DNA of 64,000 nucleotides from an uncultured Gemmatimonadaceae bacterium. Lineage in GTDB: Bacteria > Gemmatimonadota > Gemmatimonadetes > Gemmatimonadales > Gemmatimonadaceae. Numbering within the stretch: position 1 is the first letter of the stretch; every line of letters starts with the position of its first letter. A model generated the notes under the pieces. That model saw only the letters and a program-made list of their open reading frames with translations. It was not told the DNA's origin and did not search any database. The stretch lies in contig CAWHHI010000004.1 of NCBI GenBank assembly GCA_963829055.1, forward strand, positions 512,001-576,000. The letters run 5' to 3'. Below, piece after piece: positions 162-63,700 of this stretch. Both the position numbers and the translations under genes were made by a program.

Positions 162-1455
162 CTAATCGTCGGCCGGCGACCGGCCGCGACGCGTGTAGCG
201 GTCGAAGTACTCGGCGGTGGATTCCAGATCGGCGGCGGTCACGAACTCGGTGCCTAACGCCGAGCAGCCGTCGAGCGCCAGGTCGCACAGGAGCGGCGCC
301 TTGTGGGCCAGCACCGGATCCGACATTCCGTCGCGACCGCCGCGCGTGAGCAGATGCGGGATCGGGAGCGCCGAGGAGATCCGCCGCCGCGTCGAGCGAC
401 GGGCGATGGTACACGAGCCCCGCCACGAGCACGAGCGGCACCGCGTACCACTCCGGCGCCATCACGTCCGCGGACCGCACCTCGAAGTACCCGCGCGGCC
501 GCACCTCGGGAAACAGCGTCGAGAGATGCGTGCACCAGTCGCTCAGCCGTCGCCGCTCCGCGATCGAGCCAGTAGCCGAACGGCGCCGCGGCTCCGTCGA
601 CGTCCGGCAGCAGAAACGCCGGCGCGCCGAGCGCGAAATCGAGATACTCGGAAACCGGATCGCTCCCGCTGGTGCCGAGCATCCCTGTCCGGCGCGGGTC
701 GAGCGTCGCCCAGATGTGGCGACGATAACTCTTATGCCCCGTGTCCTGATCGGCGTACCGCGGAGAGCTCGCGAACATCGCCACCATGAACGGCGCGAGC
801 GCGTTGAGCACGCGTCCACGTGAGCTCGGGCGCGTCGCCACCGTCGACACACACCTGGAACGACGCGGTCTGCCGCATCATCCGAGCACCGGACGGCCCG
901 ATCCGATCGAAGTGCCGGAGCATGCGGCGGTACCGGTCCGCGTCCAGCTGTGGCGCGACATCTTCGACCCTCGTCCGCGGATCGACCCCACACGACAGCA
1001 GCTCCACCCCACTCGACGCGGCCGCCGCCTGTATCGCGCGAACCGTCGTGCGAAGCCCGACTCACCAGCGCGCTCAGCGATACGTTAGGCGCCGAGCTGA
1101 TCTCGATCTGACCGCCGGGCTCGAACGTGATGCGCCCGCCGTCCGGCAACTCGACTTCCGGTACGTTTGCCTTCGCCGACCGACGTTCTCGCCAACCCGC
1201 CGCGGCGCCTGCGCGGCGCAGAATCGCCAGCGTCGACGTACCGGGCGCATCGAGCGGCAACGGGCGTCCGGTCGCCGATTCGATCGGTATGATCTCCACC
1301 TCCGCGCCAATGCGCGGTCGCGAGTCGGCTGACGCGGCCGCGGGAAAGACGCGCCGACGGAGATCGTCAGCGAGCGCTTCACGGTCGAGCACGACGGGCG
1401 CCGCCGACCGCGCTTCGCCGCGCGATGCCCGTTCGTACCGCGGTGCCGCCGTCAC
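162..1455 (-). CDS. Glutamate--cysteine ligase (GCS2/EgtA-like), frameshifted in assembly
   Basis: Motifs RIGAEVE, ITFEPGGQIEISS, MMRQTASFQV, MFASSP and HKSYRRHIWATLDP in successive frames; lies downstream of egtD. Confidence 0.8.
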
Positions 1456-1462
1456 GATACCC

Positions 1463-2446
1463 TCACGCGTTCGCGCCCGCCTCGTCGTCGAGCGATGCGA
1501 CGACCAACGCGTAGCTCGACGCTGCGTCGGTGATCCAGCGATCGATGCGCATGCCGGCAGCACCGAGCAGCTCCGCGAGCGACGCGCGATCGTACTTGCA
1601 GCTGATCTCCGTGCGAATGGACTCGCCTCCGGCGAATGCCACCGATCCCACGCCCGGAATGTGAACGGTCTGATCGTCCGTCGAGACGAGGTGCATCTCG
1701 ATGCGATGCAGGCTGCGGTCGTAGAACGCGCGGTGCTCGAACGCCGCGAGATCGAAGTCCGCGCCGAGGTCGCGATTCAGCACTCGCAGGACGTTCAGAT
1801 TGAACTCCGCCGTCACGCCCTGGCTGTCGTTGTACGCGCCTCGATGATCGCGGGGTCCTTTCGCAGGTCGGCGCCGAGGAGAAAGCTGTCGGCCGGCCGC
1901 ATGGCGATCGCGACGTGTCGAAGCAGCGTCCGCGCACCGGTCGGATCGAAGTTGCCGATCGTGCTGCCGAGGAACGCGATGAGCGCCGGCTGCGGGAGCG
2001 CCGGATCGAGGTCGAGCGGGTCCGCGATGTCGCCGACGAGCGGCTCGATGCCTAACGACGGATACTCCGCGCGAAGCTTGTTGGCCGACTCCTCCAGAAA
2101 CTCCGCGCTCACGTCGATCGGCACGTACACGTCGCCGTGTCCCGCGTACACCATCGCGTCGAGCAGCAGCCGCGTCTTGTCTGCGCTACCCGCCCCGAGC
2201 TCGACGAGCGCGCGCTGGACGAAGCGCGGTCATGAGCGTCGTGCTCCAGCAGTCGAGCAGCGCGCGCTCGGTTCGCGTGAGATAGTACTCGGGCAGGCGC
2301 GTGATCTCGTCGAACAGCTCGGAGCCGCGCCGGTCGTAGAAGTACTTCGGCGGCAGCTCCTTCTGCGGGCGCGAGAGTCCGCGCGCGACGTCGCGCAGCA
2401 ACTCCGTGTGGAGCGACGCGTCGGACCGACCGGCAATGCTAGTCAT
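1463..2446 (-). CDS. egtD: L-histidine N-alpha-methyltransferase (frameshifted)
   Basis: [65 protein letters not shown]. Confidence 0.93.
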
Positions 2447-3772
2447 CGGATGCGCACCGGAAGCCGCTGAAGATCTGGCGGCGAATAGGGTAGTCCCAGT
2501 TGCGGAACGTGTTGCGGATGGCGCCGGGGCGCGTGGCGAACGAGCCGCCGCGGAGCACCTTGTAGTCGCTGCCGAAGAACGACCTCCGAGTACTCCGGAT
2601 ACGGGAACGTCTCGTAGCCGGGATAGCGGCGGAAATCGCTCGACGTCCATTCCCAGACGTCGCCGATCATCCCGTAGCAGCCCGATGGGTGACACGTTGC
2701 AGCGGATACGCGCCAACCGGCGCGGTCTCGAACGCCAGCTGGTCGAGGTTCGCGTGCGCGGGCGTCCACGGGGTCGTTGCCCCACGGGAACAGGCGCTGC
2801 TTCCCGGTCGCCGGATCGAACGACGCCGCCGCTTCCCACTCGAATTCGTTAGGCAGCCGCTTGCCCGCCCACCGCGCGTACGCCTCGGCCTCGTGATACG
2901 TGACGTGACACACGGGGCGTCGCGGATCCACTGGGCCCGCTGCGATCGAACGTGCGGGAGTGCCACGCCGAGCCTTCGCGCGTCCAGTACTTCGGCGCGT
3001 TGGCGGCGTCGGCTTCCTTCCATGCCCAGCCCGCGTCGGTCCACAGCTCGCGCCGCTGATAGCCGCCGTCCTCCATGAAGTCGAGATAGCGGCCGTTCGT
3101 GACCGGAGTGACGTCGATGCTGAACGGCCTGAGCTCGACCACGTGCCGCGGTCGCTCGTTGTCGTACGCGACGCGCCGGTCGTCGGTCCCGATCGGAACG
3201 ACGCCGCCGGGGAAGCGCATCATCGCGCCGACGTCGATCGAGAACGACGGCTCGGGAACGTCGCGACCACGCGGCGCACGATACGGCGCGCCGCGCTTGA
3301 GCTGCAGCGTCTGCAGGATCGTCTCGTTATGCTGGTACTCGTGTTGCGCGACCATTGCGTACACGTATCCGTCGCGCAGGAGCGGATCGCCCGCCTCGAG
3401 ATCGAGCGTCTCGAATTTCGCGAGCACACGCTCCCGCACCTCGGCCATGATCTCGAGCACTTCATCACGACCCGGCAGGTCGAGCGCACCGCGCACGCGT
3501 CGCGGATGCTCGAACGGGTTGTAGATGCCCGGCATCTCGCCGAACTCCACGGTGCCGTGCACGTTCCGCGTCAGCCACAGCTCCTCGAAGTGCGCGATGT
3601 GGCCGAGGTCCCAGACGATCGGGCTCATTAATGGGTCGTGCTGTTCGCGAAGCTCGTCGTCGGACAGCGGCTCGATGAGCCGCACCGTTCGCTCACGCGC
3701 CTCGCGAAGCAACTCGGTGATCCGCACGGCTTCGCGATCGACACCCGGACGCGTCTCTGTGGATTCGGCCAT
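2443..3772 (-). CDS. egtB: Ergothioneine sulfoxide synthase (DinB-like + FGE-sulfatase domains), frameshifted
   Basis: [18 protein letters not shown], iron motif [48 protein letters not shown] overlap with egtD. Confidence 0.92.
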
Positions 3773-4970: not shown

Positions 4971-6136
4971 ATGCCCGTTTCTCGTCGGGATTTTCTGTCT
5001 GCCGGTGCCACCGCCGCCGCCGGAGTTGCGCTTGGCACTCCGTTACTGGCCGAGACTGCGCTCGCAGTGCGAGCGTCGAGTCGAGTCGAGCCGGGTGTTC
5101 GCGCGTCCGGTCGTGATCGCGTCCGCCAACGGCATCCGCGGCGTCAAGAAGGCGTACGACATGATCGTCGCTGGCGCCGACACGCTCGACGCGATCATCG
5201 CCGGCGTGAACATCCAGGAGCTCGACCCCGAGGACATGTCCGTCGGGCTCGGCGGCCTGCCTAACGAGGATGGCGTCGTGCAGCTCGACGCGAGCTGCAT
5301 GCACGGTCCCACGAAGCGGGCCGGCGCGGTCGGCGCGCTCGAGGACATCGCGACACCATCACTCGTCGCGAAGGCGGTGATGGACTACACCGACCACATC
5401 ATTCTGGTCGGTCAGGACGCGAAGCGGTTCGCGCTCAAGATGGGGTTCAAGGAGCAGGACCTTCTGACCGAGAAGAGTCGCGCCGGAGTGGATCAAGTGG
5501 AAGACGCGGTTGAATAGCGGGCGACTCGTGGCTCGAGCCTTCCGAGACATCGCAGCGATCCGCGCCCGCGGCTCCGGCGCCGGCAACGTCACCACGCAAT
5601 CCGTCGGGTGACGGGTCGGGGAAGGAGCTCAAGTACGACGAGTACGGCATCGCGCACACGTGGGGCACGATCAACATGAACGCCGTCGATGCGAACGGAG
5701 ACATGAGCTCCGTGACGACGACGAGCGGCATCTCGTGGAAGGTGCCCGGGCCGCGTCGGCGATTCGCCGATCATCGGCGCGGGCCAGTACTGTGACAACA
5801 CCGTCGGCGCGGCTGGGTCGACCGGACGCGGCGAATCGAACATCAAGGTGTGCGGCGCCTTTCTCGCCGTCGAATTCATGCGCCAGGGCATGACGCCGGA
5901 GCAGTCGATCATCAAGGTGATGGAGCGCGTGCTGGCGATGACGGAGAAGCGTCTGCTCGACGATCGCGGGCGCCCGTACTTCGACCTGCAGTTCTACGCG
6001 CTCGCGAAGGACGGCCGCATTGCGGCGGCGACGGCGTACGAGGGATCGAAGTTCGCGGTCTGCGATAGCGCAGGGCGCGCGTCTGGTGGACTGCGCGTAT
6101 CTGTTCAAGGCGTCGGAAAAGCCGAAACGCGCGTAG
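4971..6136 (+). CDS. N(4)-(beta-N-acetylglucosaminyl)-L-asparaginase family Ntn hydrolase with Tat signal (frameshifted)
   Basis: MPVSRRDFL; SVGLGGLPNEDGVVQLDASCM; WGTINMNAVD; TTTSG; GDSPIIGAGQYCDN; STGRGE. Confidence 0.88.
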
Positions 6137-6272: not shown

Positions 6273-7614
6273 TCCTGCTCCTCCTGTTGGCTTTCCTCGG
6301 GGCCGCTGCAACGACGGCATCCCGATTTTCGAGCGGGCGCGGCCCCATAGCGCTCACGAGCGATACGCCGACGGGCTCGAGCGAGCTGGGCTCGCCAACT
6401 CGGCGCTCGCTCGCGACTGGCTCGCGGCTGCGACGTCTTCCATCCGTCAGGCAGTTCCAGTCAGCGCTGCCGTTCCGCGAGGTCGGCTATTTCGCCGCGT
6501 CGGAAGCGCGCGCCGTCGCCTACGCCATCAGGCTCCGCGATGGACAGCGACTCGTTGCGACCGCGCGAGACGATCTGCCGGTGCGCCGTTGACGGTCTTT
6601 CTCGATCTGTTCCAGCAGACCGCCGACACCGCAAATCCGCTCGACCTCGTCGCGAGCCTCGACAGCGCCACCGTACTGCAGCGGCGCGACTGACGCACGA
6701 AGCGCGGCGAGACGGTGTGTACGTGTTGCGCGTACAGCCCGAGCTGCTCCGTAGCGGTGCGTACACGCTCACGCTCACCACGGAGCCGTCGCTGGCGTTC
6801 CCGGTTTCCGGAAAGAGCAACAAAGCGGTCCAGAGCTTCTTCGGCGCGGAGCGTGACGCGGGAGCGCGGCTCCACAAGGGCATCGACATCTTCGCGCCGC
6901 GCGGGACGCCCGTGCTCGCGGCCACGCGCGGCGTCGTACGCTCGATCTCGCCTAACAACCTCGGCGGCAATGTCGTGTGGCTCTCCGACTCCGATCGCGG
7001 GCAGACGCTCTACTACGCGCATCTCGACCGCCACAACGTAGTCGAAGGTCAGCGCGTGAGACGTCGGCGACACGTTAGGCTTCGTCGGTAACACGGGCAA
7101 CGCGCGCACGACGCCGCCTCACCTGCACTTCGGCGTCTACCGGCGCGGGCAGGGGGCCGTCGATCCGTATCCGTTCGTGTACCGGTCCAGCGCGGTTGTT
7201 GCGCCAGTCACCGCCGACACCGCGGAGCTCGGGACGCTCGCGCGCGCACGAGCGCGACAGCCCCGATGCTTGCCGTCACCCGAAGCCAGCGCGCCGACCC
7301 TAACGACGATCGCCGGCGGCAACGCCACTGCAGGTCGACGCTGCGGCCGGCAGCTGGTTCCGCGTTCGCCTGCCCGACGGGACCGCGGGCTACGTGGCGT
7401 CGCGTCTGGTCGAATCGACTCGCAACGCCGTCCGGCGGACAGACGGTCGCGTCAGGCACACCGCTCCGCGATCGGCCAGCGGCGAACGCGGCGATCATCG
7501 CGACCGCATCGGGTGGATCGCTGCCGGTCGATCGGCGAGTTCGCCGACTACTCGCTCGTGGAGACCGCCGGACGGGCTGAACGGCCTGGGTTGCCGTCAG
7601 GCCGGCTGAAATGA
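6214..7614 (+). CDS. M23 family metallopeptidase, probably exported, with SH3-like C-terminal region (frameshifted)
   Basis: HKGIDIFAPRGTPVLAA, YYAHLD, GFVGNTGNARTTPPHLHFG; hydrophobic LLLLAFLG near the N-terminus. Confidence 0.85.
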
Positions 7615-7633
7615 CGGCGCGCCGGGAAGCGCG

Positions 7634-9880
7634 TTAGGCGCGCCGCCGCTCGACGGCGCGGTCGGGATCGGCATCTCGCCGGTTGCCCTCTCGAGCTTGA
7701 AGCCGCCGACGAGCCCCGACATGTGTGCGGCGGCCGCGGCCAGCGTCGCGGCGGCGGCGGCGATCTGCTCGGTGCTCGCGCTCTGTTCCTCGCTCGACGC
7801 CGCGACTTCCTCCATCGCCGACGCGTACGACTCCGTGGCCTTCGCCACCTCGTCGAGCCGCGCGGTCACGTCGGCGACGAGCTCGCGCGACGTCGTCGCC
7901 GCCTGCTCGATGGACGCCGTCCACGCTTCCGATCCGCGCACGGCGTCCTCGACCTGCGCGAACGAGTGCATGCCGAGCTGCGTGGTCTCGAGCACGCCGA
8001 TCACGGTTTCCATGGTGCGCGCGCTCAGCGCGCGAGACTCCTGCACCTTTGGCGAGCACGCCGCGCACGAGCGTCTCGGTGCGCTGCGCCGCCTCGGCCG
8101 AGTTGGCCGCGAGTCGTCGGACTTCGCTCGCGACGACGGCGAAGCCCTGCCCGTGCTCGCCCGCTCGCGCCGCCTCCATCGCGGCGTTGAGCGCGAGCAG
8201 CTTCGACTGCTTGGCCATCTTCTGCACGAGCGTCACGAACGCGCCGAATTCCTCGGATGCTTCGGCGAGCGCCTTCACGGCGTCGGCACTCGCGCGCGCG
8301 TCGCTCGCGAGGTGCTCGCAGCGCGATCGCGCTCGCGTCGAACCGCGTGCGGTTCTCCTTCGCGAGCGCGGCTGAGCGCGGCGTTGCGCTCGACGCCATC
8401 GTGCGCGCCGCTCGCGAGCTGATCGGCGATGCTCTGCAGACGCGACGCGTCGGACGCCATGCGCTGAATCGCGTCCGCCATCTCGGTCGACTGTCGGCTC
8501 AGGTCACCCGACGTCACCGCCATCTCCTCGGCGGCCGCAGCCATGTTCTCGCTGCCGCTCGTGATCTCGGCGGCGCGTGCCGTCGTCTCGCGGGCAGCGT
8601 CGCGCAGTGTCGACACGACGCGCCGGAGATCGTCGACCATCGCGGCGGTCGCGCGGCTCAACCGCCCGACTTCGTCGTTGGCGCTCGACGGGATCACTGG
8701 CGTCGAGAGATCGCCGGCGGCGACCGCTTCGGCGACGCTCGCCAGCTCGGTGACCGGCGCGCTGATGCGGCGATCGAGGAAGCGGCTCATCACCACAGCG
8801 TCGCGACGAGGAACGCGAGCACGGCGATCAGCGCGACCGCGATCATGGCCGTGCCTGTCGCGCAACGGCGCGAGCACGCTCGCTTCATCGATCTGAAGCG
8901 ACGACGCGCCACGATCCGTCGTTCGCGGCGGCGACCATCGCGCGTAGCGACGTGTTCGGCCGCGGTGAAGTCGCACGATCGTATCGCCGGCGGCGTCCGG
9001 GGAGGCTCTCCGCCCCGGGAAGCGCCCTTCATTCGCTCGCCGTTCCGCGACGGAGCTGGCGATCACGTCGGCCGCGACCGTCGATGACGTCGAGGCGGAC
9101 GTCTCGCTGCTCGTCGCCCGTCGCGAGCGCGGCGTCGAGCGTCGGGATGCCGAACGCGATCTTGATGACACCTTCCGGCGCGGTCGCGCTCGCCTTCGTG
9201 GATCGCCGCGGCCATCGACACGACCGTCTGTCGGGCGGACTCGTCGATACTCGGCTTCGGCCGTCGTCAGCCCTTTGCGAACCGCATCGCGCCACCATCG
9301 CCTCGTCGCTCTGGACGAAGTCGGACGTCATCTCCGTCGTCACGGCGTTGAAGCCGTTCGACGTCGGTGACGAACATCTCGGCGATGCCGAGCGGGGCGA
9401 GCTGCCGCTGAAGGAACCGGTCGGCGGTCTCGCTGACGGCAAGACTCCGCGTCGCGGCCATGTCGCGTTCGAGGCCTCGATCGGGCGCCCGACGAGTCCC
9501 ATCTGCGCGGCGCGCTGCGGCGCCGGCGCGTGCCGCGTCGACGACGGTCGGCGAAGCGCCAATGAGCTCGACCTGCCGCGCACGCTCGAGCAGCGCCTGC
9601 TCGGTCACGAGCTCGCCGCGGCGCGCGACGTCGCGGAGCCGGGTGTCGGCGCGGTCGGAGAGGAAATTCGCCGCGGTCCGCATGGCGACCAGCACGCGCG
9701 ACGCCGAGGATGCCGACCGCGACGATCGCGGCACCAACGACCATGCCGCGCTGAAGCGATTTGGAATGCGTGGCCGGCGTCGGCGCGCGCGACCGCGCCC
9801 GTCGGGGATCGAGACCGGCGTGCGCGAGGGACTGCGTGCGTCGAAGTGATCGAGGAGAGCGTCATGGCGGCCAGGGTCAT
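7634..9880 (-). CDS. Methyl-accepting chemotaxis protein (extracytoplasmic sensor, HAMP, MCP signal domain), frameshifted
   Basis: [62 protein letters not shown]; two TM segments. Confidence 0.88.
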
Positions 9881-9987: not shown

Positions 9988-12532
9988 ATGACTGCACCCA
10001 ATCCGCACGAGCCCACTCCTGTGAGCGCTCCCGTCGACTACGATCCGAGCACCGTCGAAGCCAAATGGCAGCGCCGGTGGCGCGAGCGTGGCACGAATCA
10101 CACCGATCTCGCCGAGCGGGGAGCGGCCGTTCTACGCGCTCATGATGTTCCCGTACCCGTCGGCGGAGGGGCTGCACGTCGGCAACCTCTTCGCGTTCAC
10201 GGGCAACGACATCTATGGACGATTCCAGCGGCTTCAGGGGCACACGGTGTTCGAGCCGCTGGGCTACGACGCGTTCGGCATCCACTCGGAGAACTACGCG
10301 CTCAAGGATCGGCGAGCATCCGATGCGCCTCATCCCGAGGAACATCGCGAACTTCCGCCGGCAGCTGGAGCGCGGCGGCCTGATGGTCGACTGGCGCTAC
10401 TCGGTGGACACCACCGATCCGCGCTACTACCGCTGGACGCAGTGGGTCTTCCTCAAGCTCTACGAGAAGGGGCTGGCCTACAAGAAGAAGGCGGCCGTCA
10501 ATTGGTGTCCCGAACGACAAGACCGTGCTCGCGAACGAGCAGGTCATCAACGGCGCGTGCGAGCGTTGCGGCGCGATGGTCGAGCAGCGGTTCCTGGAGC
10601 AGTGGTTCTTCCGCATCAGCGAGTACTGCGGAGCGGCTGCTGAACAACCTGGACCACATCGACTGGTCGGAGACGCACGAAGACGGCGCAGCGGAATTGG
10701 ATTGGCCGGAGCGATGGGGCCGAGATCGAGTTCGACGTCTGGGAACCGGGAACAGGGAACTCGGGAACCGAAGCGTCGCCGAGGCAGTCGCCGAGTTCCC
10801 GAGTTCCCGAGTTCCCGGTTCCCAGTCCCGATCACGGTCTTCACCACCCGACCCGACACGATCTTCGGTGCGACCTACCTGGTCCTCGCGCCGGAGCATC
10901 CGCTCGTCGCGCAGCCTAACGACTCGACGAGCAGCGCGCCGAGGTCGAGGCGTATCGCGAGCGCACCAAGCGGCAGGACCTCGTGTCGCGAAAGGTGACC
11001 AAGGAGAAGACCGGCGTCTTCACTGGCAGCCACGCGACCAACCCGGCCACCGGCGCGCCCATTCCGATCTGGATCGCCGACTACGTGCTCATGGAGTACG
11101 GCACCGGCGCGATCATGGCCGTGCCCGGACACGACGAGCGCGACTTCGAGTTCGCGAACGTCTTCTCGCTGCCCATCGTCAGGGTCGTGGCTGGTGAGGA
11201 GCGAGAGCGAGCACACGCCACTGGCCGAGGCGTTCACCGAGAACACGTGGCGGTCGGATCGTGAACTCCGGCCAGTTCGACGGCATGCCGGTGCCCGAGG
11301 CGAAGCGCGCGATCACCGACTGGCTGGCGTCGCGCGGTGCCGGCCGCGCCGTCGTGAACTACCGGCTGCACGACTGGTGCATCTCGCGGCAGCGCTACTG
11401 GGGTCCGCCGATCCCGATCATCTACTGCGATAAATGCGGTCCGCAGCCGGTGCCGGAGAAGGACCTGCCGGTCATGCTGCCCGACATCGAGGACTTCCGG
11501 CCCGACGATTCCGGCGTGTCGCCGCTCGCGCGTCACGAGGACTGGTACGTCGTGCCGTGCCCGAAGTGCGGCGGCAAGGCGCGTCGCGAGACGGACGTGT
11601 CCGACACGTTCCTCGACAGCGCGTGGTACTTCCTGCGCTATCCCGAGCGCCGATCGCGACGACGTGCCGTTCGATCCGAGCCTGACGAGCAAGTGGCTGC
11701 CGGTGAACTCGTACATTGGCGGCAACGAGCACGCCGTGCTGCACCTCATGTACGCGCGGTTCATCACGATGGTGCTGCACGACATGGGCATCCTGCACTT
11801 CGAGGAGCCGTTCACGCGCTTCCGCGCGCACGGCCACATCATTCGCGAACGGCGCGAAGATGTCGAAGACGAAGGGCAACATCGTCAACCCCGACCAGTA
11901 CTACGAGCAGTGGGGCGCGGACACGTTCCGCACCTACCTCATGTTCCTCGGACCGTACGAGGAAGGTGGAGACTTCCGCGATCAGTCCATCTCCGGCGTT
12001 AGGCGCTTCCTCGACCGGCTGTGGGCGTCGGCGGCGGAGGCGACGACGGAGGGCGCCGCCCGACCCCGAGGTGCTGCGCAAGCTGCACCAGACGATCGCG
12101 AAGGTCGAGCGACGACGTCTCGCGGCTCGCCTACAACACCGCCATCGCGGCGATGATGACGTACATCAACACGCTGCGGCAGGGTGAGCGCACACCGCAT
12201 CGCGACGAGGTCGAGCCGCTCATTCAGCTCGTGGCACCGTTCGCGCCTCACCTGGCGGAGGAGCTGTGGGAGCAGTTCGGCCACAAGGAGAGCGTGTTCG
12301 ACGCCGGCTGGCCCACGTTCGACGCGGACGCTCGCGCGCGAGCAGATCATCGATCTCGCCGTGCAGGTCAACGGCAAGATGCGCGGAACGATTCGCGTGC
12401 GGCCCGACGTCGACGCAGGAGGAAGCGCTCGAGGCGGCGCATGGCGCGATTCCGGCGATCGCGCGGTTCGTCACCGGCCCGCCGAAGAAAATCATCTTCG
12501 TGCCTGGTCGCCTGCTGAACATCGTCGTGTGA
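9988..12532 (+). CDS. leuS: Leucine--tRNA ligase (many assembly indels)
   Basis: [72 protein letters not shown]. Confidence 0.96.
10739..10825. repeat. GGGAAC/GTTCCC inverted repeat array inside leuS
   Basis: CTGGGAACCGGGAAC (10739-10753) is the exact reverse complement of GTTCCCGGTTCCCAG (10811-10825); inner arms 10755-10768 and 10795-10808. Confidence 0.85.
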
Positions 12533-14159: not shown

Positions 14160-14210
14160 CGACTCTCGGTGAGCTTCCGCACCGCGCGCTGCCGCAGTCC
14201 CTCATCCGGA

Positions 14211-44078: not shown

Positions 44079-44150
44079 GGTCGGCCGCCTAACGCTTCGA
44101 GGTGGTGCGCACGTCGGTCGGCCGCCTATCGGCGAAGGGCGGAAACGACG

Positions 44151-54912: not shown

Positions 54913-54914
54913 GC

Positions 54915-55308
54915 CTAACGACCGTTGCGAACGGGAAAGATGAAGTACGTGAGCAGGAGACACGCGACGCCGTAAAGATACCACTGCGGGTCGCCGAGCA
55001 GCATCCAGAACAACCCGCCGTAGATCGCGGTCGCTTCGCCGAGCGCCCACGCGATCACGCTGAACGTCCCGCGGCGTTCGGGCGTCGCTCGGCCCGCGCC
55101 GAGGAAGAGCCCGAGCGTGCCGAGCGTCATGAACCCCCAGACGGCCTGGCCAGCGACGCGCAGCGCACGCGGAGTCGATGCCGTACGACTCGTACCCCGA
55201 GCGCCGGACGTACCAGACAATGCCGCCGAACGCCAGCACACCGACGAGGAGCGCGATGCGGATGAGCGCGAGCGTGCGTCTCGGAGCGGACGCCGGCGCT
55301 GCGGTCAC
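54915..55308 (-). CDS. Small multi-TM hypothetical protein (frameshift ~55170)
   Basis: Hydrophobic segments LIRIALLVGVLAFGG, VIAWALGE, YGVACLLLTYFIFP. Confidence 0.6.
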
Positions 55309-56981
55309 GGAACGGTCGCCCTGCGCTCGTAGACGACCTTGCCGCCGACGTACGTCGCGAGCACGTGCGTGCTGAGCACCTGCTCGGGTGCAATGCGCAT
55401 GATGTCCTGGTCGAGCACGACGAAGTCCGCGAGCTTGCCCGGCGTGAGCGATCCCATCAGGCTCTCCTGGAACGCCGCGGCCGCGGGCCAGAGCGTGATG
55501 GACTTGAGTGCCTCCTCGCGCGTCATCTTCTGCTCGGGATACCAGCCGTTAGGCGGCCAGTTGTGCGCGTCCTGACGCGAGAACGCCGCGTGGAACGAGA
55601 TGAGCGGGTTCACCTGTTCGACCGGGAAGTCGCTGCCGTTCGGGATGATCGAGCCGTTGTCGAGCAGCGAGCGCCAGGCATACGCGCCTAACAACCGTGT
55701 CGAGCCGAGCCGCGTCCCCGCCCAGTACATGTCGCTCGTCTGGTGGCTCGCCTGCATGGACGGAATGACACCGAGCGATGCGAAGCGCGGAATGTCATCG
55801 GGGTTGATGATCTGCGCGTGCTCGATGCGGAACCGATGGTCCGCGACAGGGACCGCCTTGAGCGCCTGCTCGTACGCGTCGAGTACGATGCGATTGCCGC
55901 GGTCGCCAATCGCGTGCGTGTTCACCTGGAAGCCAGCCTTGAGCGCGCGCTCGGCTACCGCTTCGATGTGCTCGGGCTTGGACACGAGCAGGCCGTTCGT
56001 CGTGGCGTTGTCGGCGTACGGATCGAGCAGCGCGGCGCCGCGCGAGCCGAGCGCGCCGTCGGCGTACAGCTTGACGCTGCGCACCCAGAGCGTGTTGCCG
56101 TACCCGCCGACGAGTGGCCCGCGCGCGAACCACCGCGCTATCGTGGCCGAATCATCGGAGATCATCGCGTACATGCGGAAATTGAGCGCGCCCGCCTTGC
56201 CGAGCTCTTCGTAGATGTCGAGCACCTGTGACGACGCGCCCGCGTCGTGCACGCCGGTGAGCCCGAACTTCTGCGCCTCGGCGATCGCCGCCTGTACCTC
56301 GGACTTCACCTCGGCTCGCGTCGGCTGCGGAATGACGCGCTCGACGATACCCTGAGCGTTGTCGACGAAGACGCCGGCGGGAGCGCCGTCGGCGGCGCGT
56401 TCGATGTGTCCGCCTTCCGGATCCTTGGTTTGAGCCGTGGCGCCGGCGGCCTTGAGCGCGGCCGCGTTCGCGAGCCCGGCATGTCCATCGATCCGCGTTA
56501 GGTACACAGGGTTGTTCGGCACGGCGGCCGAGAGCTTCTCGTGCGTGGGGAAGCGCGTATCGCCCCAGTCGTTCTGATCCCAGCCCCGTCCTATGATCCA
56601 TTGTCCCGGCGACGCGGTCTTGGCTCGCGCGATGACACGGGCTATGACCTCGTCGTATGACGTCGTGCCGGTCAGGTCGACTGTGCGCAGCGCGAGCCCG
56701 AGGTTATCCACGTGGCCATGGGCGTCGACCATTCCGGGGATCACCGTGCGGCCGCCGAGATCGACAACGCGCGTGGACGCCCCGCGGAGAGCCATCGCGG
56801 CGCCGGATGAACCGACGAACTGCACCTTCCCGCCGCGCACGGCCATCGCGTCGGCGAGTGGGTGCGCGTCGTCCACCGTATAGATGCGCGCGTTTGTGAC
56901 GATGAGATCGGCGGGCTGCTGTTGCGGTTGTTGCGCAGCGGCGAGCGCGGGGATCAGCAGGAAGAGAAGAGCGCGGTTCAT
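55305..56981 (-). CDS. Amidohydrolase 3 (YtcJ-like), secreted
   Basis: Intact 558 aa; PGMVDAHGH, KLYADGALGSRGA, HAIGD, RIEHAQ, GSDFPVE, GKLADFVVL. Confidence 0.92.
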   Translation of the reverse strand: MNRALLFLLIPALAAAQQPQQQPADLIVTNARIYTVDDAHPLADAMAVRGGKVQFVGSSGAAMALRGASTRVVDLGGRTVIPGMVDAHGHVDNLGLALRTVDLTGTTSYDEVIARVIARAKTASPGQWIIGRGWDQNDWGDTRFPTHEKLSAAVPNNPVYLTRIDGHAGLANAAALKAAGATAQTKDPEGGHIERAADGAPAGVFVDNAQGIVERVIPQPTRAEVKSEVQAAIAEAQKFGLTGVHDAGASSQVLDIYEELGKAGALNFRMYAMISDDSATIARWFARGPLVGGYGNTLWVRSVKLYADGALGSRGAALLDPYADNATTNGLLVSKPEHIEAVAERALKAGFQVNTHAIGDRGNRIVLDAYEQALKAVPVADHRFRIEHAQIINPDDIPRFASLGVIPSMQASHQTSDMYWAGTRLGSTRLLGAYAWRSLLDNGSIIPNGSDFPVEQVNPLISFHAAFSRQDAHNWPPNGWYPEQKMTREEALKSITLWPAAAAFQESLMGSLTPGKLADFVVLDQDIMRIAPEQVLSTHVLATYVGGKVVYERRATVP

Positions 56982-57055: not shown

Positions 57056-57694
57056 CTAGAAAGGCATGTCGTACGGCGGTGGGGTCACCTTGTTCAGTCG
57101 CAGATACGGAATCAACTGACCAAACGTCCACGTCGCGTGCTCACGCGACAGCTCCAGCCAGCGCCAGCCTGGCGCCGCCGGCTGGTTGAACAGCGTGTGC
57201 GACTTCGCGAGTTGTGCCGGTGTCGCCGAGCGCAACGCCTCGAGCAGGTAGTCGTACGACTTGGTCGTGAAGTCAGTGAGCGCGGCCTTCTTGTGCAGAT
57301 ACTGGGCGGTATCGCCTAACGTTGGCGGGCGCTTGAGACCGCGCAGCACCACGGCGGCGATCTCCGTGTTCGTTCCCACGAAGTGCTCCACCTGCTGTGC
57401 GAACGTGCGGACGCCTGGCGTCGGCGCGAACGTCATCGCAGAGTCAGGCATGACGGCGATGTAGGCGAGCACGTTCTTCTTCTGCCGCTCCCAGTCCACT
57501 ACCATGGTCGCGAGCGGCGTGCCCGCGCTGGCGTCCGGCTTTGTCGCTGCTGCTTGCTTGGTCGCTGCTTGCTTGGTCGCTGCTTGCTTGGTCGCCTGCG
57601 CCACGAGCGGCGCGGCAGGCGCAATCGCGACCGTCGCGCACAGCGCGAGACGAATGAACGTAGCAGGCACCATCAGAATCTCCGTGTGATTCAT
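57056..57694 (-). CDS. DinB family protein, secreted
   Basis: FAPTPGVRTFAQQVEH, EHATWTFGQLIPYLRLNKVTPP; signal peptide. Confidence 0.8.
   Translation of the reverse strand: MNHTEILMVPATFIRLALCATVAIAPAAPLVAQATKQAATKQAATKQAAATKPDASAGTPLATMVVDWERQKKNVLAYIAVMPDSAMTFAPTPGVRTFAQQVEHFVGTNTEIAAVVLRGLKRPPTLGDTAQYLHKKAALTDFTTKSYDYLLEALRSATPAQLAKSHTLFNQPAAPGWRWLELSREHATWTFGQLIPYLRLNKVTPPPYDMPF
57549..57593. repeat. 3 x 15-bp perfect tandem repeat encoding (TKQAA)3
   Basis: GCTGCTTGCTTGGTC three times, just after the signal peptide. Confidence 0.85.
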
Positions 57695-57846
57695 CTGTGG
57701 GGATGAAAGCGCAACGCCGAGGCGGCGCTGTGGTCGGCGCGTGCGCCGTCGGACGCCGAGATAGATGAACCTCGGCAAGCGAGGGCGCAACCAGCCCGCG
57801 CCCTAACGCTGCCGGGATGAGAGGTCGCTGGCGGTGTGGCCGCTTG

Positions 57847-59582: not shown

Positions 59583-60752
59583 ATGGCTTGCCCGAGTTTC
59601 GTCCGATTGGCGCTGCTGTTCTCGATCGGAGCGTGCTCCGACTCCGACGCGCCAACCACCCCGTCTTCCGCCGCTCAGATGTTCGAGCGCTTCGTCGCGC
59701 TCGGCACCAGCAACAGCATGGGCGTTCAGTCCGCGGGGATCTTCGCCGCGGGGCAGCGCGCGGCATGGCCTGCGCAGCTCGCGAGCCGCATAGGCGTTCC
59801 ATTCTCCGAGCCGCTGCTTCAGGACCCCGGCTGCGGCCCGCCGCTCGTCGCGCCGCTGGCGTCCGACCTGGCGCTTGTCGGTACGCTGGGCAGCGGCTTC
59901 ATCAACGCAGTCAACGGCACGTGCGCGCCGCTGCAGAACGGTATCACGCTGCCAACGAACAACGTCGCGATTTCGGGCGCCGACGTGCACGACGCGCTCG
60001 TGGCCACACCCGAGTCGAAGGGCGACGTACGTACGCGAACGCTCTACAGTCGGGTGCTGGCGCCGGGGCAGACGCAGGTGAGCGCGATGATCGCACAGAA
60101 GCCGACGTTCGTGTCGGTGGAGCTCGCGGCGAACGACGTGCTGCCGGCGAGCACTGGGCGCGTGTCCGCGATGACGCCGTACGCCAACTGGGAGCGCGAC
60201 TACGATGCGGTGCTCGACGCCGTGAGATCGACGGGCGCCCGCGCGGTGCTGGTCGGCGTGCCTAACGACGCTGCCCAGTTCCCGAGCATCCGTCGCGCGA
60301 GCGAGCTCGCCGCCGACGCCGCGGCGCTCCAGACGCTCGGCATCCGCGTGACCGCCGATTGTGCGCGCAGTTCGAACTATCTCTTCATTCCGGGCTACGT
60401 GCTCACGCTCGTGGCCCAGGCGCCCGCGAGCGCGACGTGCGCGGACGTGGCGGGCGCCGCGGACTACGTGCTGACGCCTGAGGACATCGCGGCGATCAAT
60501 GCGCAGATGGTGCGGATGAACGCCCACATGCAGGCGAAGGCCACGGAGCTCGGGTTCGCCTACTTCAGTCTCGACGCGGTGTACGCGCTGCCGAAGCCGG
60601 CGTTCAGTATCTCGGGGGTCCTCTTCTCCAACGCGCCATTCGGGGCGAACATCAGCCTCGACGGCGTGCATCCGAGTGCACAGGGGCAGGGGCTTCTGGC
60701 AGCGGCTGCGGCGCAGGCAATCACCGCGAAGTATGGAGTGGCGATCCCGTGA
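59583..60752 (+). CDS. SGNH/GDSL-like hydrolase lipoprotein
   Basis: Lipobox SIGAC; FVALGTSNSMG, NVAISGA, LAANDVL, DGVHPS. Confidence 0.75.
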   Translation: MACPSFVRLALLFSIGACSDSDAPTTPSSAAQMFERFVALGTSNSMGVQSAGIFAAGQRAAWPAQLASRIGVPFSEPLLQDPGCGPPLVAPLASDLALVGTLGSGFINAVNGTCAPLQNGITLPTNNVAISGADVHDALVATPESKGDVRTRTLYSRVLAPGQTQVSAMIAQKPTFVSVELAANDVLPASTGRVSAMTPYANWERDYDAVLDAVRSTGARAVLVGVPNDAAQFPSIRRASELAADAAALQTLGIRVTADCARSSNYLFIPGYVLTLVAQAPASATCADVAGAADYVLTPEDIAAINAQMVRMNAHMQAKATELGFAYFSLDAVYALPKPAFSISGVLFSNAPFGANISLDGVHPSAQGQGLLAAAAAQAITAKYGVAIP

Positions 60753-60761
60753 CACTGATGA

Positions 60762-63700
60762 ATGCCGCCAGCTGACGGCACCGCACGTCGATTCGTAGTC
60801 GGCATCGGGGTGTCGACCTATGACGACCCCGAGCTCAATCTCGCGGCTGTGCCTGACGACGTGGCGAAGATCACTCGCTGGTTCGCCGAGCGCTCGAGCG
60901 TGCCGCACGAGCGAGCGCTGCCCGAGCTGGCGGACAGTCCGAGAAACGAAGACATCCGTCACGCGTCTGAGGGATGGCTCGAGGAGCGGGCCCCGAGGAT
61001 TACGTCGTTGTCTACCTCGCGGCGCACGCCGACGAAGAGGCGGGTACGCCGTACGTGCTTGGCAGAGACTCGGTGAGGCAGCGCTTCGCCGGCCGCGCGA
61101 TCGACGGCAACACGCTCGGCACCATCATCGGCCAGTCGCCGCCGCATAACGTGCTCTTCATCGTCGATGCCTGCGTCGCCGGAACGATCGGCAAGGCGAT
61201 CCAGCGTCGCGCCGAAGATGTGTCGGAAGCGATGAAGAACCGGCAGCCGCAGCTCAAATGGAGCCAGGCGGTGCTGTGCAGCACGTTCGGGCGTGACCCT
61301 GCGTCGGACGGCCGGTTCGCAGAAGCGTTTCTGACCGTCGTGACGCAGGAGCGATGGACGGGAACGTCGCGTCCGTTCATCGACATCGACCTCCTGATGA
61401 CGGGACTCAATCAGGAGCTCAAGAATCTCAACGCGCCACAGGTCGCCGAGCGCAAGGTGTGGGGACCCGGCGCCGCCGAGCTCATTCCCAATCCGAACTT
61501 CGGCGCGCGCCAGGTCTCGGCGTTGATCGCGGACGAAGAGCTGGCATTGCACTTCGATCCGTCGGCGCGCGGGGTCACGCGAGGGGAATCGGGATCGTAC
61601 TTCATCGGCCGACACGACGAGCTCGCGCGCATCGTGCGCTGGCTCCGGGCGCCGGCGGTTTCGGGAACGTCGCACCTGCTCGTGATCACCGGTTCGCCGG
61701 GCTCCGGGAAATCGGCGCTCATCTCGCGCGTCGTGCTGCTGAGCGATCCCGCGCTGCGCGCGCGCGTTCCTCGACTCCACGATCTCGCGCCGGAAACGGT
61801 TCCGCCCGATTCATCGATCACGGCAGCGCTCTGGTGTCACAACAAGACGCTCGAGCAGGTCGTCGTCGATCTCGGCTCGCGGCTCGGCCTGAACGCGCGC
61901 GCTGCCTCCGCGTTGCTGTACGCGATCGGTGCGCGGCAGCCCGCCGGATCGCCGTTGACGATTGCCATCGATGCGCTCGATGAAGCTGTGGACGGTCATG
62001 CGGCCCGCATCGCATCGGAGCTCATCGTACCGCTCGCGTCGCTCGACGGCGTGAAAGTGCTCGTGGCGACGCGGCCGCATCCCGTCCACTCGCTCGACGA
62101 GCCCCAAGACGCCACGAGTCTGCTCGAGTCGTTAGGCATCCCGGCTGGCGATGACACGATGACGCTGGTGGTGGACAACGCGGCGAATCGCGGGGCCGAC
62201 ATGCGAGCGTATGTGGAGGCGCGTCTCATGGGGACGGGCGACTCCGGCCGCCTGACGCCATACTCGGACAAGCCCGATGTCGCGGCGCGACTCGCGGAAC
62301 GCATCGCCGAGGCGGCGGGCAGTTCCTTCCTCGTCGCCGCGGTCACCGCGCGCGCTCTCTCGGCTCGGGCCGAGGCGGTGGATCCGGAGGCGATGATCAA
62401 CCTCCCCACGGAAGCGGGCGACGCCCTCGCGCGATACATTGAGCGGCTTCCGGATCCGAAGGTCGTGATCGACATCCTTCGGCCACTGGCCTGGGCGGCG
62501 GGCTCGGGGCTGCCGTGGGGACCGCTGTGGGCGCCAATCGCGAATGCGCTGGCGCGGGCACCGTTCCCCGACGCGGACGTGCACTACGACGACGACATGG
62601 TTGCGACGGTGCTCGAGCGGGCGAGTGATCTCGTCATCGAGACGATGGAGTCGGATGAACCCGTATACCGGCTCTTTCACGCGGCGCTCGCGGAGCATCT
62701 CCGTCGTGACCTGACGCCGCTGCAGGCCCACGAGGCCATCGCCGGCGTGCTCGACACGATCATCGACTCGGCTCCGTTCCGTACGGCGCCTGCCTATGTG
62801 CTGGCGCACATGACGACGCACCTCGCGCAATGCCCCAGCCGGTATCAGCAACTGTACGAGCTCGTCACCGATCCCGAATGGGAGCGGGCCAAGCGAGATC
62901 GGTTCCGGCGCTCGGAAGGGTTCTTTCGTGACGTAGAGCTCGCGATCAAGGGTGCGCTCGCGCGCGACCCGCAGGATCTCGCTTCACTCGCGGGCGCCTG
63001 TCTCGTCTGCTCGCGGCAAATGGCTGTTGCTCCCGCGCCCGTAATCGACGTGCTGGCGAAGGAACGGCAGCTCCAACGCGCGGAGGCGATGGCGAACAAC
63101 ATCACGTTCGCCGTGGAACGGTGCTGGGCCTACGCGCTTCTCGCGCCGACCTTCCATGCCGAGCGTGACGTCGGTGGCGCGCTTCGTTGCCTGGCCGAAG
63201 CCGAGCGGTCGATCGGCGCGATCAACGTCACGCACACGGCGATGGCCTGGTCATGGATCGCAGAGGCCGCGGTAGCGTGCGGGTTCGGCGACCGCGCGAT
63301 GCTCGCGTCGCGTCGCGCGGCCGAATCGCTCGATGCGCTGACCCGGGAGACCGAGTGGGAGCTGCCTAACGTCTTCTTCTGGGCCGGCATGACCGCGCGT
63401 CATGCACGAGACGAAGCGACGCGCGCGGCGCTGCGTGAGATGTTCGGCAAGCGAGTGGAATACGTACGCCGCAACCAGGAGCTGCAGGCAGCGGCAGTTC
63501 TCGGCGCCACGGACACGCTGCGCGAGCTGTGGCGGCAGTGGATGGGTGGCGAGCGAGACGGCTTCGTGCGCCACGGCAACCTCGCGCTCGCGCTCGCCGA
63601 CGCGGGCATGATGGATGAGCTCCGCGCGATGCTTGCCGTGTTCGAGACCGAGGGAGTAAACCCACGTCGCGAGGCGAACTCGAACAAGCACTTCGTGTGG

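Follow-up and report, generated by a model that had tools for sequence, protein, structure and literature searches.

A simple question is raised by the 64-kb stretch of DNA analysed here (the window), which belongs to the genome of a soil bacterium of the family Gemmatimonadaceae (G000, 86% complete): why is one short word, CCTAACG, or CGTTAGG on the opposite strand, repeated so often, and largely within genes? A preliminary description of the window had listed 46 copies. Exact matching returns every one of its start positions (21 on the plus and 25 on the minus strand), as well as the CCTAACA variants that it placed at 6951 and 55687. Dinucleotide-preserving shuffles of the window yield 2.65 copies on average and 6 at most, with none of 100 reaching 46; the claimed enrichment holds, and the earlier expectation of about 6-7 copies was too generous. 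The base at position -1 is G in 35 of the 46 copies and the base at +1 is G in only one, which indicates that the word is longer than the heptamer. Its full form is GCCTAACG. Codon frames were called from the 150 nt on either side of each copy, with the list of open reading frames (ORFs) as a second source. In the following list every copy is an exact match; codons stem from the frame call, ORF coordinates from the ORF list and congener counts from alignment.

253..259, plus: full form
1083..1089, minus: full form
2051..2057, plus: full form; TCG-TTA-GGC, minus-strand gene
2847..2853, minus: full form; 3' edge of ORF 2849-4048 (minus)
5260..5266, plus: full form; CCT-AAC-GAG, plus-strand gene
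7073..7079, minus: full form; frame unreliable
7299..7305, plus: C at -1
7632..7638, minus: full form
10915..10921, plus: full form
11997..12003, minus: full form; GGC-GTT-AGG, plus-strand gene
14155..14161, plus: full form
17128..17134, minus: full form; GAC-GTT-AGG, histidine-kinase gene
17456..17462, minus: full form; stop TAG (ORF list) or GTT-AGG (frame call)
22286..22292, minus: full form
22936..22942, minus: full form
26491..26497, minus: full form
27440..27446, plus: full form; ACG-TTA-GGC, minus-strand gene
28095..28101, plus: C at -1; GCG-TTA-GGG
28273..28279, minus: C at -1; CCT-AAC-GAG
29206..29212, minus: A at -1
30133..30139, minus: C at -1
31458..31464, minus: full form; frame unreliable
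34713..34719, minus: A at -1
35455..35461, plus: full form; ACG-TTA-GGC, MFS transporter gene
38315..38321, minus: full form; CCT-AAC-GTG
38428..38434, plus: C at -1; TCG-TTA-GGG
40400..40406, minus: full form; TCG-TTA-GGC
41593..41599, minus: full form; GGC-CTA-ACG
43740..43746, plus: full form
44088..44094, plus: full form
46166..46172, plus: A at -1; in 0/5 aligned congeners
46783..46789, minus: full form; in 2/5 aligned congeners
48740..48746, plus: full form; congener spelling GCCGAGCG
49315..49321, plus: full form; GGC-GTT-AGG, M28 peptidase gene; in 1/6 congeners
50944..50950, plus: full form; CCT-AAC-GAT
51254..51260, minus: full form; frame unreliable
52137..52143, minus: full form; GCG-TTA-GGC; 5 congeners spell Leu-Gly as CTC/CTG-GGN
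52516..52522, minus: A at -1; kept in 5/6 congeners
54914..54920, plus: full form; TAA is the stop of ORF 53887-54918; kept in 5/6 congeners
55547..55553, minus: full form; CCT-AAC-GGC; kept in 3/4 congeners
56496..56502, minus: A at -1; TAC-CTA-ACG
57315..57321, plus: full form; ACG-TTA-GGC; kept in 4/4 congeners
57802..57808, plus: C at -1
60261..60267, plus: full form; CCT-AAC-GAC
62130..62136, minus: full form; TCG-TTA-GGC
63365..63371, plus: full form; CCT-AAC-GTC

The frame call agrees with the codons proposed earlier at 11997 and 17128 (GTT-AGG), 52137 and 62130 (TTA-GGC), 50944 and 60261 (CCT-AAC) and 56496 (CTA-ACG). It is unreliable at 7073 and 51254, previously read as TTA-GGC, and at 31458, previously read as CTA-ACG; these stretches score weakly or are frameshifted. 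For the copy at 17456, also proposed as GTT-AGG, the frame call gives ATC-GTT-AGG, whereas the ORF list makes TAG the stop of ORF 15689-17461.

The enrichment reaches far beyond this contig. Over the 7.78 Mb of G000, CCTAACG occurs 6,391 times, 18-26x above order-1 and order-2 Markov expectations, and GCCTAACG occurs 5,004 times, 38-49x above Markov nulls; the word heads the ranking of both 7-mers and 8-mers of the genome. Predicted genes (5,893 CDS) contain 4,142 copies vs 364 +/- 16 after shuffling of synonymous codons and 216 +/- 15 after shuffling of codon order, and 1,533 of the 2,982 TTA codons in these CDS lie inside the word. Sense and antisense copies in genes number 2,024 and 2,153, all four stop-free frames are used, and only 7 copies place an in-frame stop between coding sequence on both sides. 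In about 270 copies the word supplies the gene's own stop codon (the stop-codon bin holds 339 copies vs a baseline of about 55), and over the 60-80 nt that follow the stop it is 2-3x over-represented. Between 24 and 35% of copies fall into the roughly 25% of the genome that has no gene assignment, so density is similar in coding and non-coding DNA. Orientation has no relation to GC skew or replichores in G000. Gaps shorter than 200 bp are depleted (408 observed vs about 977 expected), those of 400-1,600 bp are over-represented, and only 28 pairs in opposite orientation lie less than 60 bp apart.

All 7 genomes of the genus, G000 and 6 others, carry the word. Among 401 genomes surveyed, forward and reverse counts are near-equal in every word-rich one. 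Within the Gemmatimonadaceae the distribution is all-or-nothing, and one genus is split into 12 word-rich and 14 word-poor species with nothing between; no alternative word (dialect) was found in the word-poor relatives. In alignments with congeners the word is retained in 80/141 cells (57%) vs 1,318/5,209 (25%) for phase-matched flanking 7-mers. Sites also turn over: of 43 that are covered by 4 or more aligned genomes, 9 show the word in every genome and 6 in a single one, and where the word is absent the alleles have G or C within the central T-A-A. Foreign housekeeping DNA of similar GC, of which the G000 assembly includes about 125 kb, contains zero copies. CCTAACG/GCCTAACG is a genuine genome word, hyper-abundant and restricted by lineage, in a part of the Gemmatimonadaceae. 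The preliminary description had proposed such a lineage-specific, genome-wide signal at the DNA level, set into genes despite their usual codon choice and, in contrast to Chi or KOPS, balanced between strands, and the Markov, shuffle and 401-genome analyses bear this out. Its remark that the motif is not a described one stands within the literature searched, but it had overlooked an identity with the core of integron attC sites, which is considered below.

The reading we favour, at a probability of roughly 40%, is that the word may be a self tag comparable to the DNA uptake sequences of Neisseria and other Neisseriaceae (DUS) and of Haemophilus, or to HIP1, recognised by a reader yet to be named. 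The word is upheld at the DNA level, not via protein or RNA, and the directional force behind it would act on stretches of DNA, not on single sites. A component of cell-to-cell DNA transfer or recombination would prefer word-bearing DNA, so that alleles gaining the word would spread and alleles losing it would be replaced. The word would then build up where coding constraint permits, in synonymous spellings, at stops and immediately beyond the ends of genes. From these patterns we infer biased transfer as the force and the existence of a dedicated reader; they would also follow from selection for any other segment-acting reader. We know of no natural competence in the phylum Gemmatimonadota. 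G000 encodes ComEC, DprA and secretins. ComEC is present in 95/101 and secretin in 100/101 genomes of the family, rich and poor alike, so neither explains the patchy trait. A ComP-like receptor model gave no match, and was silent in control genomes too. Integron integrase, MmeI-like methylase, RecC, an extra FtsK, ComEC and secretin were compared with the distribution of the word, and none tracks it.

The likeness to DUS (receptor ComP) and to the USS of Pasteurellaceae is extensive. Those are also short non-palindromic words, found about once per kb on both strands equally and written in several reading frames of genes, to the detriment of codon and amino-acid choice, with a pile-up at gene ends, spacing more even than chance and absence from foreign DNA. 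As far as is known, every member of the Neisseriaceae and Pasteurellaceae carries a dialect, whereas the Gemmatimonadaceae include word-poor relatives without any, even within a genus. Inverted pairs of the Gemmatimonadaceae word seldom form terminators, its core has only 6-8 letters, and the word is identical to an integron recombination core. HIP1 (GCGATCGC) is likewise an octamer over-represented tens of fold and conserved beyond its flanks between genomes, patchy in its phylum with some members lacking it, and its reader was long elusive (PMC5861425, PMC13756078); it has recently been put forward as an uptake sequence that aids natural transformation (PMC13756078; bioRxiv 10.1101/2024.09.10.611283). 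Unlike the Gemmatimonadaceae word, HIP1 is palindromic, and two conserved methylases have their sites within it; in G000 the three main methylase families are unmatched and the one clear methylase fails to follow the distribution of the word.

The word might instead be bound by a protein that organises the chromosome or associates with the nucleoid, with selection holding a minimum density of sites, a reading reportedly given for HIP1 by Xu et al. 2018. Over-dispersed spacing, conservation about twice that of the flanks, strand equality and similar coding and non-coding density suit it, and HIP1 offers a precedent, selection and chromosome structure being argued in PMC5861425. We nevertheless consider it doubtful: a candidate protein was not found, close relatives with similar genomes either have the word or, without any replacement, lack it, individual sites turn over freely, and an interference range of ~200 bp exceeds steric exclusion by one protein. 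Still less probable is biased repair tied to base modification, in which a methylase would mark the core and mismatch repair would correct near-words to the word, as Elhai is said to have proposed for HIP1. The enriched one-letter variants in G000 do differ mostly at outer positions (ACCTAACG, 827; CCCTAACG, 428; GCCTAACA, 435), as HIP1 variants do, and the one clear methylase of G000 is a type IIG enzyme of the Eco57I/MmeI class, a family that reads 6-7-nt non-palindromic sites of the word's shape. However, Vsr and the three main DNA-methylase Pfam families (PF01555, PF00145, PF02384) are unmatched in the 86% complete G000. The MmeI-like gene belongs to the core set, being found in 96/101 genomes, rich and poor, and no column of its alignment separates the two. 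T-bearing variants are not more depleted than other variants, and the shortage of small gaps is not what a repair bias working on each site autonomously would produce. The modification or repair origin raised in the preliminary description is thus disfavoured, and the suggested correlation with a methyltransferase gene fails for the MmeI-like one across the 101 genomes.

Another candidate reader, and one we regard as unlikely, is a recombinase of the integron-integrase type, for which thousands of bare R-boxes would be docking, landing or decoy sites in cassette recombination throughout the chromosome. The R-box consensus of attC/attI cores is GTTRRRY / RYYYAAC. In attC arrays of related Gemmatimonadales genomes, the word corresponds to the R'' box extended by one base: its letters are those of the box, GCCTAAC / GTTAGGC, and GCCTAAC is followed by G in 42/44 elements (5 loci, 3 genomes). 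At its opposite end attC reads TGTTAGGC, complementary to GCCTAACA, a variant enriched 10x in G000. This genome also encodes an integron integrase and holds a few hairpins that resemble attC and both begin and end with the word; over the two strands there are 124 pair matches, of which only 23 are strongly folding candidates, several being one site counted twice. According to bioRxiv 10.1101/2022.09.11.507474, double-stranded genomic sites can receive cassettes through IntI, but such sites require only GWT. Genomic copies are bare 8-mers within ordinary genes, without L-box, hairpin or array, and the run of words beside the G000 intI is plain coding DNA. Large attC arrays occur in word-poor genomes, and an integrase above cut-off is found in 5/12 rich and 8/14 poor species of the split genus. 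The IntI of G000 is 39-45% identical to those of rich and poor genomes alike, so no rich-specific subtype exists, and binding alone supplies no copy-creating force. Chi-like signalling, by which a RecBCD/AddAB-type enzyme would switch from degradation to recombination and mark self DNA, appears highly improbable. The word shares with Chi, KOPS and other architecture-imparting sequences that it is an over-represented 8-mer of resident DNA. It is lacking from foreign tracts, and at its density one copy in the right orientation would be met every 2-3 kb. Such sequences are skewed to the leading strand, whereas the word is balanced between strands and replichores. RecC occurs in only 9/101 genomes, mostly poor, and is missing from G000 and two others (G001, G014), G000 has no extra FtsK-family gene, and the enrichment exceeds by far that of known Chi sites. 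It is hardly credible, finally, that the word arose as an error of long-read basecalling or assembly at a modified site. The assembly does have indel errors, many genes are split, and four independent runs concordantly show a 1-base deletion at 46096 and another at 46823. This reading is contradicted by the avoidance within genes of the two stop-containing frames, which shows that the letters TAA and TAG are real, by equal density in fragmented congener assemblies, by presence in contigs whose names are those of short-read assemblers, as well as in metagenome contigs of 4 further studies, and by the copy-free foreign DNA; among the 40 of 474 substitution rows listed, none lies inside the 10 words of 46001-56000.

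Of the possibilities named in the preliminary description, an uptake-like sequence and a protein site both remain candidates. A plain uptake model gives no explanation for the 8/8 identity with the integron R-box. A word equal to the end of integron gene cassettes has been written thousands of times into the ordinary genes of this bacterium and of numerous relatives.

The 46 copies of CCTAACG and its complement CGTTAGG that the preliminary description counted by hand are exactly those recovered by a pattern search of the window, 21 on the plus and 25 on the minus strand. Dinucleotide-preserving shuffles of the window contain 2.65 copies on average and 6 at most. Both CCTAACA variants described at 6951 and 55687 are present, and most of the codon readings proposed for individual copies hold; three of those sites are in stretches that score weakly or carry a frameshift, and the frame call conflicts with the ORF list at 17456. 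In the aligned flanks, G stands at position -1 in 35 of the 46 copies and at +1 in only one, so the word is longer than CCTAACG; its eight-letter form, with G added at -1, is GCCTAACG.

The window occupies C4:512001-576000 of its genome (G000), an assembly of 7.78 Mb in 20 contigs with 66.5% GC. A genome-wide count had been proposed from the window, and it gives 6,391 copies of CCTAACG, one per 1.22 kb, an excess of 18x over an order-1 and 26x over an order-2 Markov expectation. For GCCTAACG (5,004 copies) the corresponding values are 38x and 49x. Each ranks first among the words of its length in this genome, and 86% of all CCTAA pentamers lie inside the word. Under a maximal-order Markov null the word is hidden because its own sub-words are enriched. 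The top k-mers of that ranking, together with a depth spike in aligned contigs, are due to a dispersed repeat at window 47500-47710 (about 120-200 bp, 279 BLAST hits in G000, median identity 78%), which has repeated TCGGAATGAC-type ends and a MITE-like look. A second dispersed repeat, at window 53860-53985 (about 100 bp, 53 hits in G000, median identity 88%), also shows a depth spike.

Codon usage does not account for these numbers. In the 5,893 predicted coding regions of G000 (5.84 Mb) the word occurs 4,142 times, against 364 +/- 16 when synonymous codons are shuffled within each gene, the null suggested in the preliminary description, and 216 +/- 15 when codon order is shuffled, which is an excess of 11-19x. 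TTA makes up 1.7% of leucine codons, and 1,533 of the 2,982 TTA codons in predicted coding sequence are inside the word.

The word is placed without regard to strand. Counted against the predicted genes, sense copies number 2,024 and antisense copies 2,153, and all four stop-free frames are used (CCT-AAC 1,203; C-CTA-ACG 791; CG-TTA-GG 1,527; C-GTT-AGG 595). The strand balance reported for the window extends to the whole genome, where plus and minus counts per 100 kb are unrelated to GC skew; forward and reverse counts are about equal in the word-rich genomes of a survey of 401. The frame that contains a stop codon has coding sequence on both sides at only 7 copies, by a frame call that ignores stops. 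Gene ends are sites of word pile-up: 339 copies fall in the 20-nt bin that includes the stop codon, where about 55 would be the baseline, the following three bins hold 127, 157 and 100, and about 270 copies provide the gene's TAA or TAG. Spacing in G000 is over-dispersed, with 408 gaps below 200 bp where an exponential distribution predicts about 977, and an excess at 400-1,600 bp. Opposite-strand pairs less than 60 bp apart number only 28, pairs within 12 nt 14, and clusters of at least four cores in 300 bp four.

Four one-letter variants of the eight-letter form are clearly enriched in G000 over the order-1 null: ACCTAACG (827 copies, 13x), GCCTAACA (435, 10x), CCCTAACG (428, 5x) and GCATAACG (583, 4x). 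Five others stand at 1.5-2.4x and 15 at 0.17x-1.13x; among all these variants, depletion of those bearing T is no greater than that of the rest. This pattern points to a core CCTAAC with G preferred on both sides.

Indel errors occur in the assembly of G000. Many genes in the window are split or give partial Pfam matches, and contigs from four independent studies agree in lacking one base of the window at 46096 and one at 46823. Split or part-profile genes of the MacB/FtsX, MFS and K_trans types were noted at window 26851-28519, 34366-36542 and 23860-24840. The letters of the word are real despite these indels, and the probability that the word is an artefact is negligible. Besides the avoidance of the stop-containing frame, this follows from the presence of the eight-letter form in six other genomes of the genus (2,501-5,112 copies each), whose assembly from short reads is deduced from their fragmentation into 260-1,170 contigs. 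The preliminary description named absence from accurate short reads as evidence against the word; it is present in contigs with short-read assembler names, two of which carry 7 copies in 17 kb and 3 in 7 kb, respectively. Sequence near-identical to the window was found in twenty runs from 16 studies, and among the best 40 of 474 rows of substitutions none falls within the 10 words of window 46001-56000, one run (X2) having no cover in parts of that stretch. The remaining support comes from tracts of G000 that are free of the word.

Word-free tracts of G000 (loci L105-L111; about 125 kb, 66-73% GC, near contig ends)
C6:5440-55038, zero copies of the word
C11:1-44055, zero copies of the word
C6:591808-623330, zero copies of the word

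These tracts carry housekeeping genes, including FtsK, chorismate synthase, DAHP synthase and FolD, of which second copies elsewhere in G000 are only 46-59% identical. The tracts are thus another organism's DNA, probably contamination, contigs with chimeric ends or large insertions of foreign origin, and within the assembly they act as a negative control for the word.

Alignment of five congeners (other genomes of the same genus) to G000 covered about 190 kb of syntenic contigs in total, at 77-81% DNA identity. The 7-mer of the word is unchanged in 57% of aligned cells (80 of 141), against 25% (1,318 of 5,209) for flanking 7-mers matched in codon phase. Among the 43 sites with at least four genomes aligned, the word is present in all genomes at 9 and in one only at 6, the rest being intermediate. 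Retention of the word is therefore about double that of the surrounding sequence, although gains and losses are steady. Non-word alleles differ from it at one position (20), two (31), three (14) or four to five (5), mostly by G or C replacing the central T, A and A, and the gain and loss of the word run against the GC bias of the genome. At 52137, for instance, Leu-Gly is TTA-GGC in G000 and CTC or CTG followed by GGN in five congeners; in the frame CCT-AAC a change of the word alters the amino acid. Word density is 0.70 per kb in congener-aligned and 0.63 in unaligned DNA, an uninformative contrast.

Across 401 genomes of the family, G000 included, counts of the eight-letter form are sharply structured by genus. 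On our reading of the rows, all listed genomes of genera g1, g9, g62 and g69 are rich (about 1,000-7,800 copies), as are 10 of 11 in g55. Poor genera, such as g3, g11, g12, g36, g37, g38 and g58, have fewer than about 100 copies, far under the reversed-word control, and most genera of the family have 5-60. The division runs through a single genus in g56, where 12 species are rich (1,586-4,141 copies) and 14 poor (4-66) with no intermediates. On a core-gene tree the rich species of g56 form one clade; over the family, rich lineages are interspersed with poor ones, and parsimony counts 8 changes, at least three of them forced by well-supported branches. Tallies at the level of family, genus and phylum include the unpublished genomes G013, G051, G052, G150, G264, G282, G309, G423, G465 and G492, G423 being one of the 14 poor g56 species; no key claim rests on these alone. 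In the rich g56 genome G066 the last 12 listed copies of C2:95000-129000 are all on the plus strand, possibly an array or a strand-biased gene cluster.

No other word takes its place in poor genomes: G068 (400 kb) and G008 (200 kb) have no 7-mer or 8-mer above about 6x, their top 8-mers reach 2-6x and resemble effects of codon usage, and the word itself has zero copies. In 200 kb of the rich genome G090, 102 copies were found against 3.0 expected. Elsewhere in the phylum, 127 genomes of 11 families were surveyed, and G533 alone clearly exceeds its control (726 vs 293). Among the loci examined from outside Gemmatimonadota, none has more than 3 copies.

The few copies in poor relatives are clustered on one strand, about 550-630 bp apart. 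An attC site of an integron is an imperfect palindrome of the form R''-L''...L'-R', about 60-140 nt long, which folds, and its R-box follows the consensus RYYYAAC/GTTRRRY. The same-strand clusters are arrays of such sites, 44 elements at five loci in three genomes.

Large attC cassette arrays in poor genomes of a neighbouring family
G021:C95:1-20000 (L087), the largest, with 24 attC sites over 20 kb
G019:C3 (L089), attC array
L090, attC array
L091, attC array
L092, attC array

Median length of the elements is 90-99 nt, and the median fold z per locus ranges from -2.8 to -7.0 against shuffled interiors. In 37 of the 44, the GCCTAAC end pairs with the GTTAGRC end; G follows GCCTAAC in 42 and T precedes GTTAGRC in 42. 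From these end letters the genome word is, letter for letter, the R'' end of the sites. The R' end 8-mer TGTTAGGC, found in 42 of the 44, is the complement of the enriched variant GCCTAACA, whose excess could equally be a product of CpG-transition decay of the word. A search of the 8 kb around the inner end of the G021:C95 array found no integrase. Further same-strand clusters with the same spacing occur in the neighbouring family at G475:C12, G475:C23, G478:C55 and G509:C51.

The R-box letters GCCTAAC/GTTAGGC are thus the same in attC and in the word, and this identity at 8 of 8 positions is too specific for chance and explained by no model that we tested. Unlike attC, the genomic copies lack the folding R''-L''...L'-R' structure. 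A search of G000 for attC-like pairs gave 124 matches on both strands, of which 23 fold strongly and several are one site read twice, and the sequence around the 46 copies of the window is not conserved beyond +/-1. With so few hairpins and such plain flanks, the thousands of genomic copies are bare R-boxes and not attC sites.

Integron integrase genes of G000
C20:208041-208958 (L081), integron integrase, 265.7 bits against a cut-off of 265
C4:2862-3170 (L082:1489-1920), minus strand, truncated IntI with the N-terminal domain only (143-aa ORF, 105 bits, model positions 2-104), probably a remnant

Within L081 no cassette array stands beside the integrase, and the run of words next to it is plain coding DNA. 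An inverted pair of R-box cores 21 nt apart occurs at C20:207951-207978, about 60-90 nt past the 3' end of the integrase gene, and attC-like hairpins are found at C20:163143, 183882 and 192696, at a distance of 15-45 kb.

The force that maintains the word acts on DNA and not on proteins, is indifferent to strand, yields to coding constraint, spares foreign DNA and leaves copies interfering with each other over about 200 bp. Hyper-abundance throughout the genome at about one copy per kb, and equality on both strands independent of gene and replication direction, are shared with the DNA uptake sequences (DUS/USS); conservation between genomes above that of the flanks is shared with HIP1. As the combination of features is that of DNA uptake sequences and HIP1, we favour the reading that the word would be a transfer-biased self tag, with a probability of roughly 0.4. 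G000 has competence machinery (ComEC, DprA, secretins), a likeness to the DUS/USS systems that does not discriminate, being family-wide: ComEC was found in 95 of 101 genomes and secretin in 100 of 101, and genes so universal are uninformative on a patchy word and were rejected as its determinants. The receptor of DUS is a ComP-type minor pilin; the ComP_DUS model PF16732 has no match in G000, nor in any of 14 control genomes. DUS/USS favour the uptake or transformation of DNA that carries them, an effect that is predicted for the present word. Against membership among uptake sequences stand the on/off pattern between sister species and the lack of dialects, poor relatives differing from those of DUS/USS systems in having neither the word nor a dialect of it. 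HIP1 differs in being a palindromic octamer, whereas GCCTAACG is not its own reverse complement, and in its cognate orphan methylases, searches of G000 with PF01555, PF00145 and PF02384 and the MmeI-like gene described below giving no such partner of the present word. A periodic distribution at 10-90 kb also belongs to the HIP1 type; for the present word the analysis covered short-range spacing. Two recent reports link HIP1 to natural transformation (PMC13756078; bioRxiv 10.1101/2024.09.10.611283).

The other readings assign the word to a different kind of reader or to none. A protein-binding chromosome site is rather unlikely; HIP1 itself was earlier taken for a chromosome-structure signal (PMC5861425). 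From KOPS and other 8-mers read by FtsK or TraB the word differs in having no skew and in a genome with no extra translocase: an FtsK/TraB-type candidate was sought, and G000 has only its native FtsK and one copy inside a foreign tract. KOPS is skewed towards dif, and Chi is skewed in orientation with replication direction. The word has no orientation skew, and a Chi-like signal is very improbable. Chi sites have a cognate RecBCD or AddAB enzyme; a search for RecC recovered it from 9 of 101 genomes, with G000, G001 and G014 not among them. That the word results from a repair bias is quite improbable, since copies interfere over about 200 bp and a site-autonomous process of mutation or repair would not give such spacing. 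As for the enzymes of such a process, G000 has no match to PF01555 (N6_N4_Mtase), PF00145 (C5 DNA_methylase), PF02384 (N6_Mtase) or PF03852 (Vsr) and a weak one to a D12-class methylase. One further methylase was considered as a driver.

Type IIG methylase locus of G000
C8:73551-76300, Eco57I/MmeI-like type IIG methylase
C8:73551-78300 (L163:7551-12317), the same gene followed by a SNF2-family helicase

Searched with its first 500 residues, the MmeI-like gene was recovered from 96 of 101 genomes (74 of 77 genera), rich and poor, as ORFs of about 1,060-1,140 aa with 46-77% identity; it is a core gene of the family, which is unusual for an apparent defence system. In a 38-row alignment no column distinguishes rich lineages, of which there are 7, from the 21 poor rows; within g56 the 46 fixed differences are evenly spread.

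Reading of the word by an integrase-type enzyme would fit its identity with the R-box and is improbable, as word abundance, unlike attC, is independent of the presence of an integron integrase. Of the g56 species, 5 of the 12 rich and 8 of the 14 poor have an integrase that scores above the cut-off (5 of 12 vs 7 of 13 without the unpublished G423). A subtype specific to rich genomes was likewise rejected, IntI of G000 being 39-45% identical to IntIs of rich and poor genomes alike. For IntI1 at genome sites only GWT is required, according to the attG preprint (bioRxiv 10.1101/2022.09.11.507474). What probability remains belongs to something outside these explanations.

The self-tag reading may be extended to the attC identity, in a form that is distinctly unlikely: a putative reader sharing the specificity of the attC R-box would handle free cassettes and own-kind DNA in one step of uptake or recombination, and the cassette core would have been written all over the chromosome as a side effect. 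Natural transformation is reported to drive the shuffling of cassettes in chromosomal integrons (PMC12614218), which makes a shared recognition step conceivable. If true, this extension would join natural transformation, cassette traffic and genome composition in one system, and whole chromosomes of the family would "look like" cassette ends.

In the literature searched no description of CCTAACG or GCCTAACG as a genome motif was found, the top-ranked string matches appearing to be primers or constructs; nothing was found that ties Gemmatimonads to uptake sequences. New here are the codon-shuffled null, the foreign-DNA control, the stop-codon pile-up, the complete 12/14 split, the lack of dialects and the six negative reader candidates. 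That split in g56 is an unusually clean comparative design for finding the reader. The word may also serve as a marker in binning, in recognising chimeric contigs (as with the 125 kb of foreign DNA exposed here) and in dating acquired DNA.

To our knowledge, hyper-abundant genome words are known from only three groups, Neisseriaceae, Pasteurellaceae and cyanobacteria, in which the word is a handle on telling own DNA from other. A fourth such case, in a soil phylum that is abundant yet hardly represented in culture, would suggest that genes are exchanged in soil by a route so far unrecognised. It gains interest from a trait that is sharply on or off between sister species and from a word that is the integron cassette core letter for letter; if its reader shares the specificity of integron sites, the finding bears on how cassettes move and arise.
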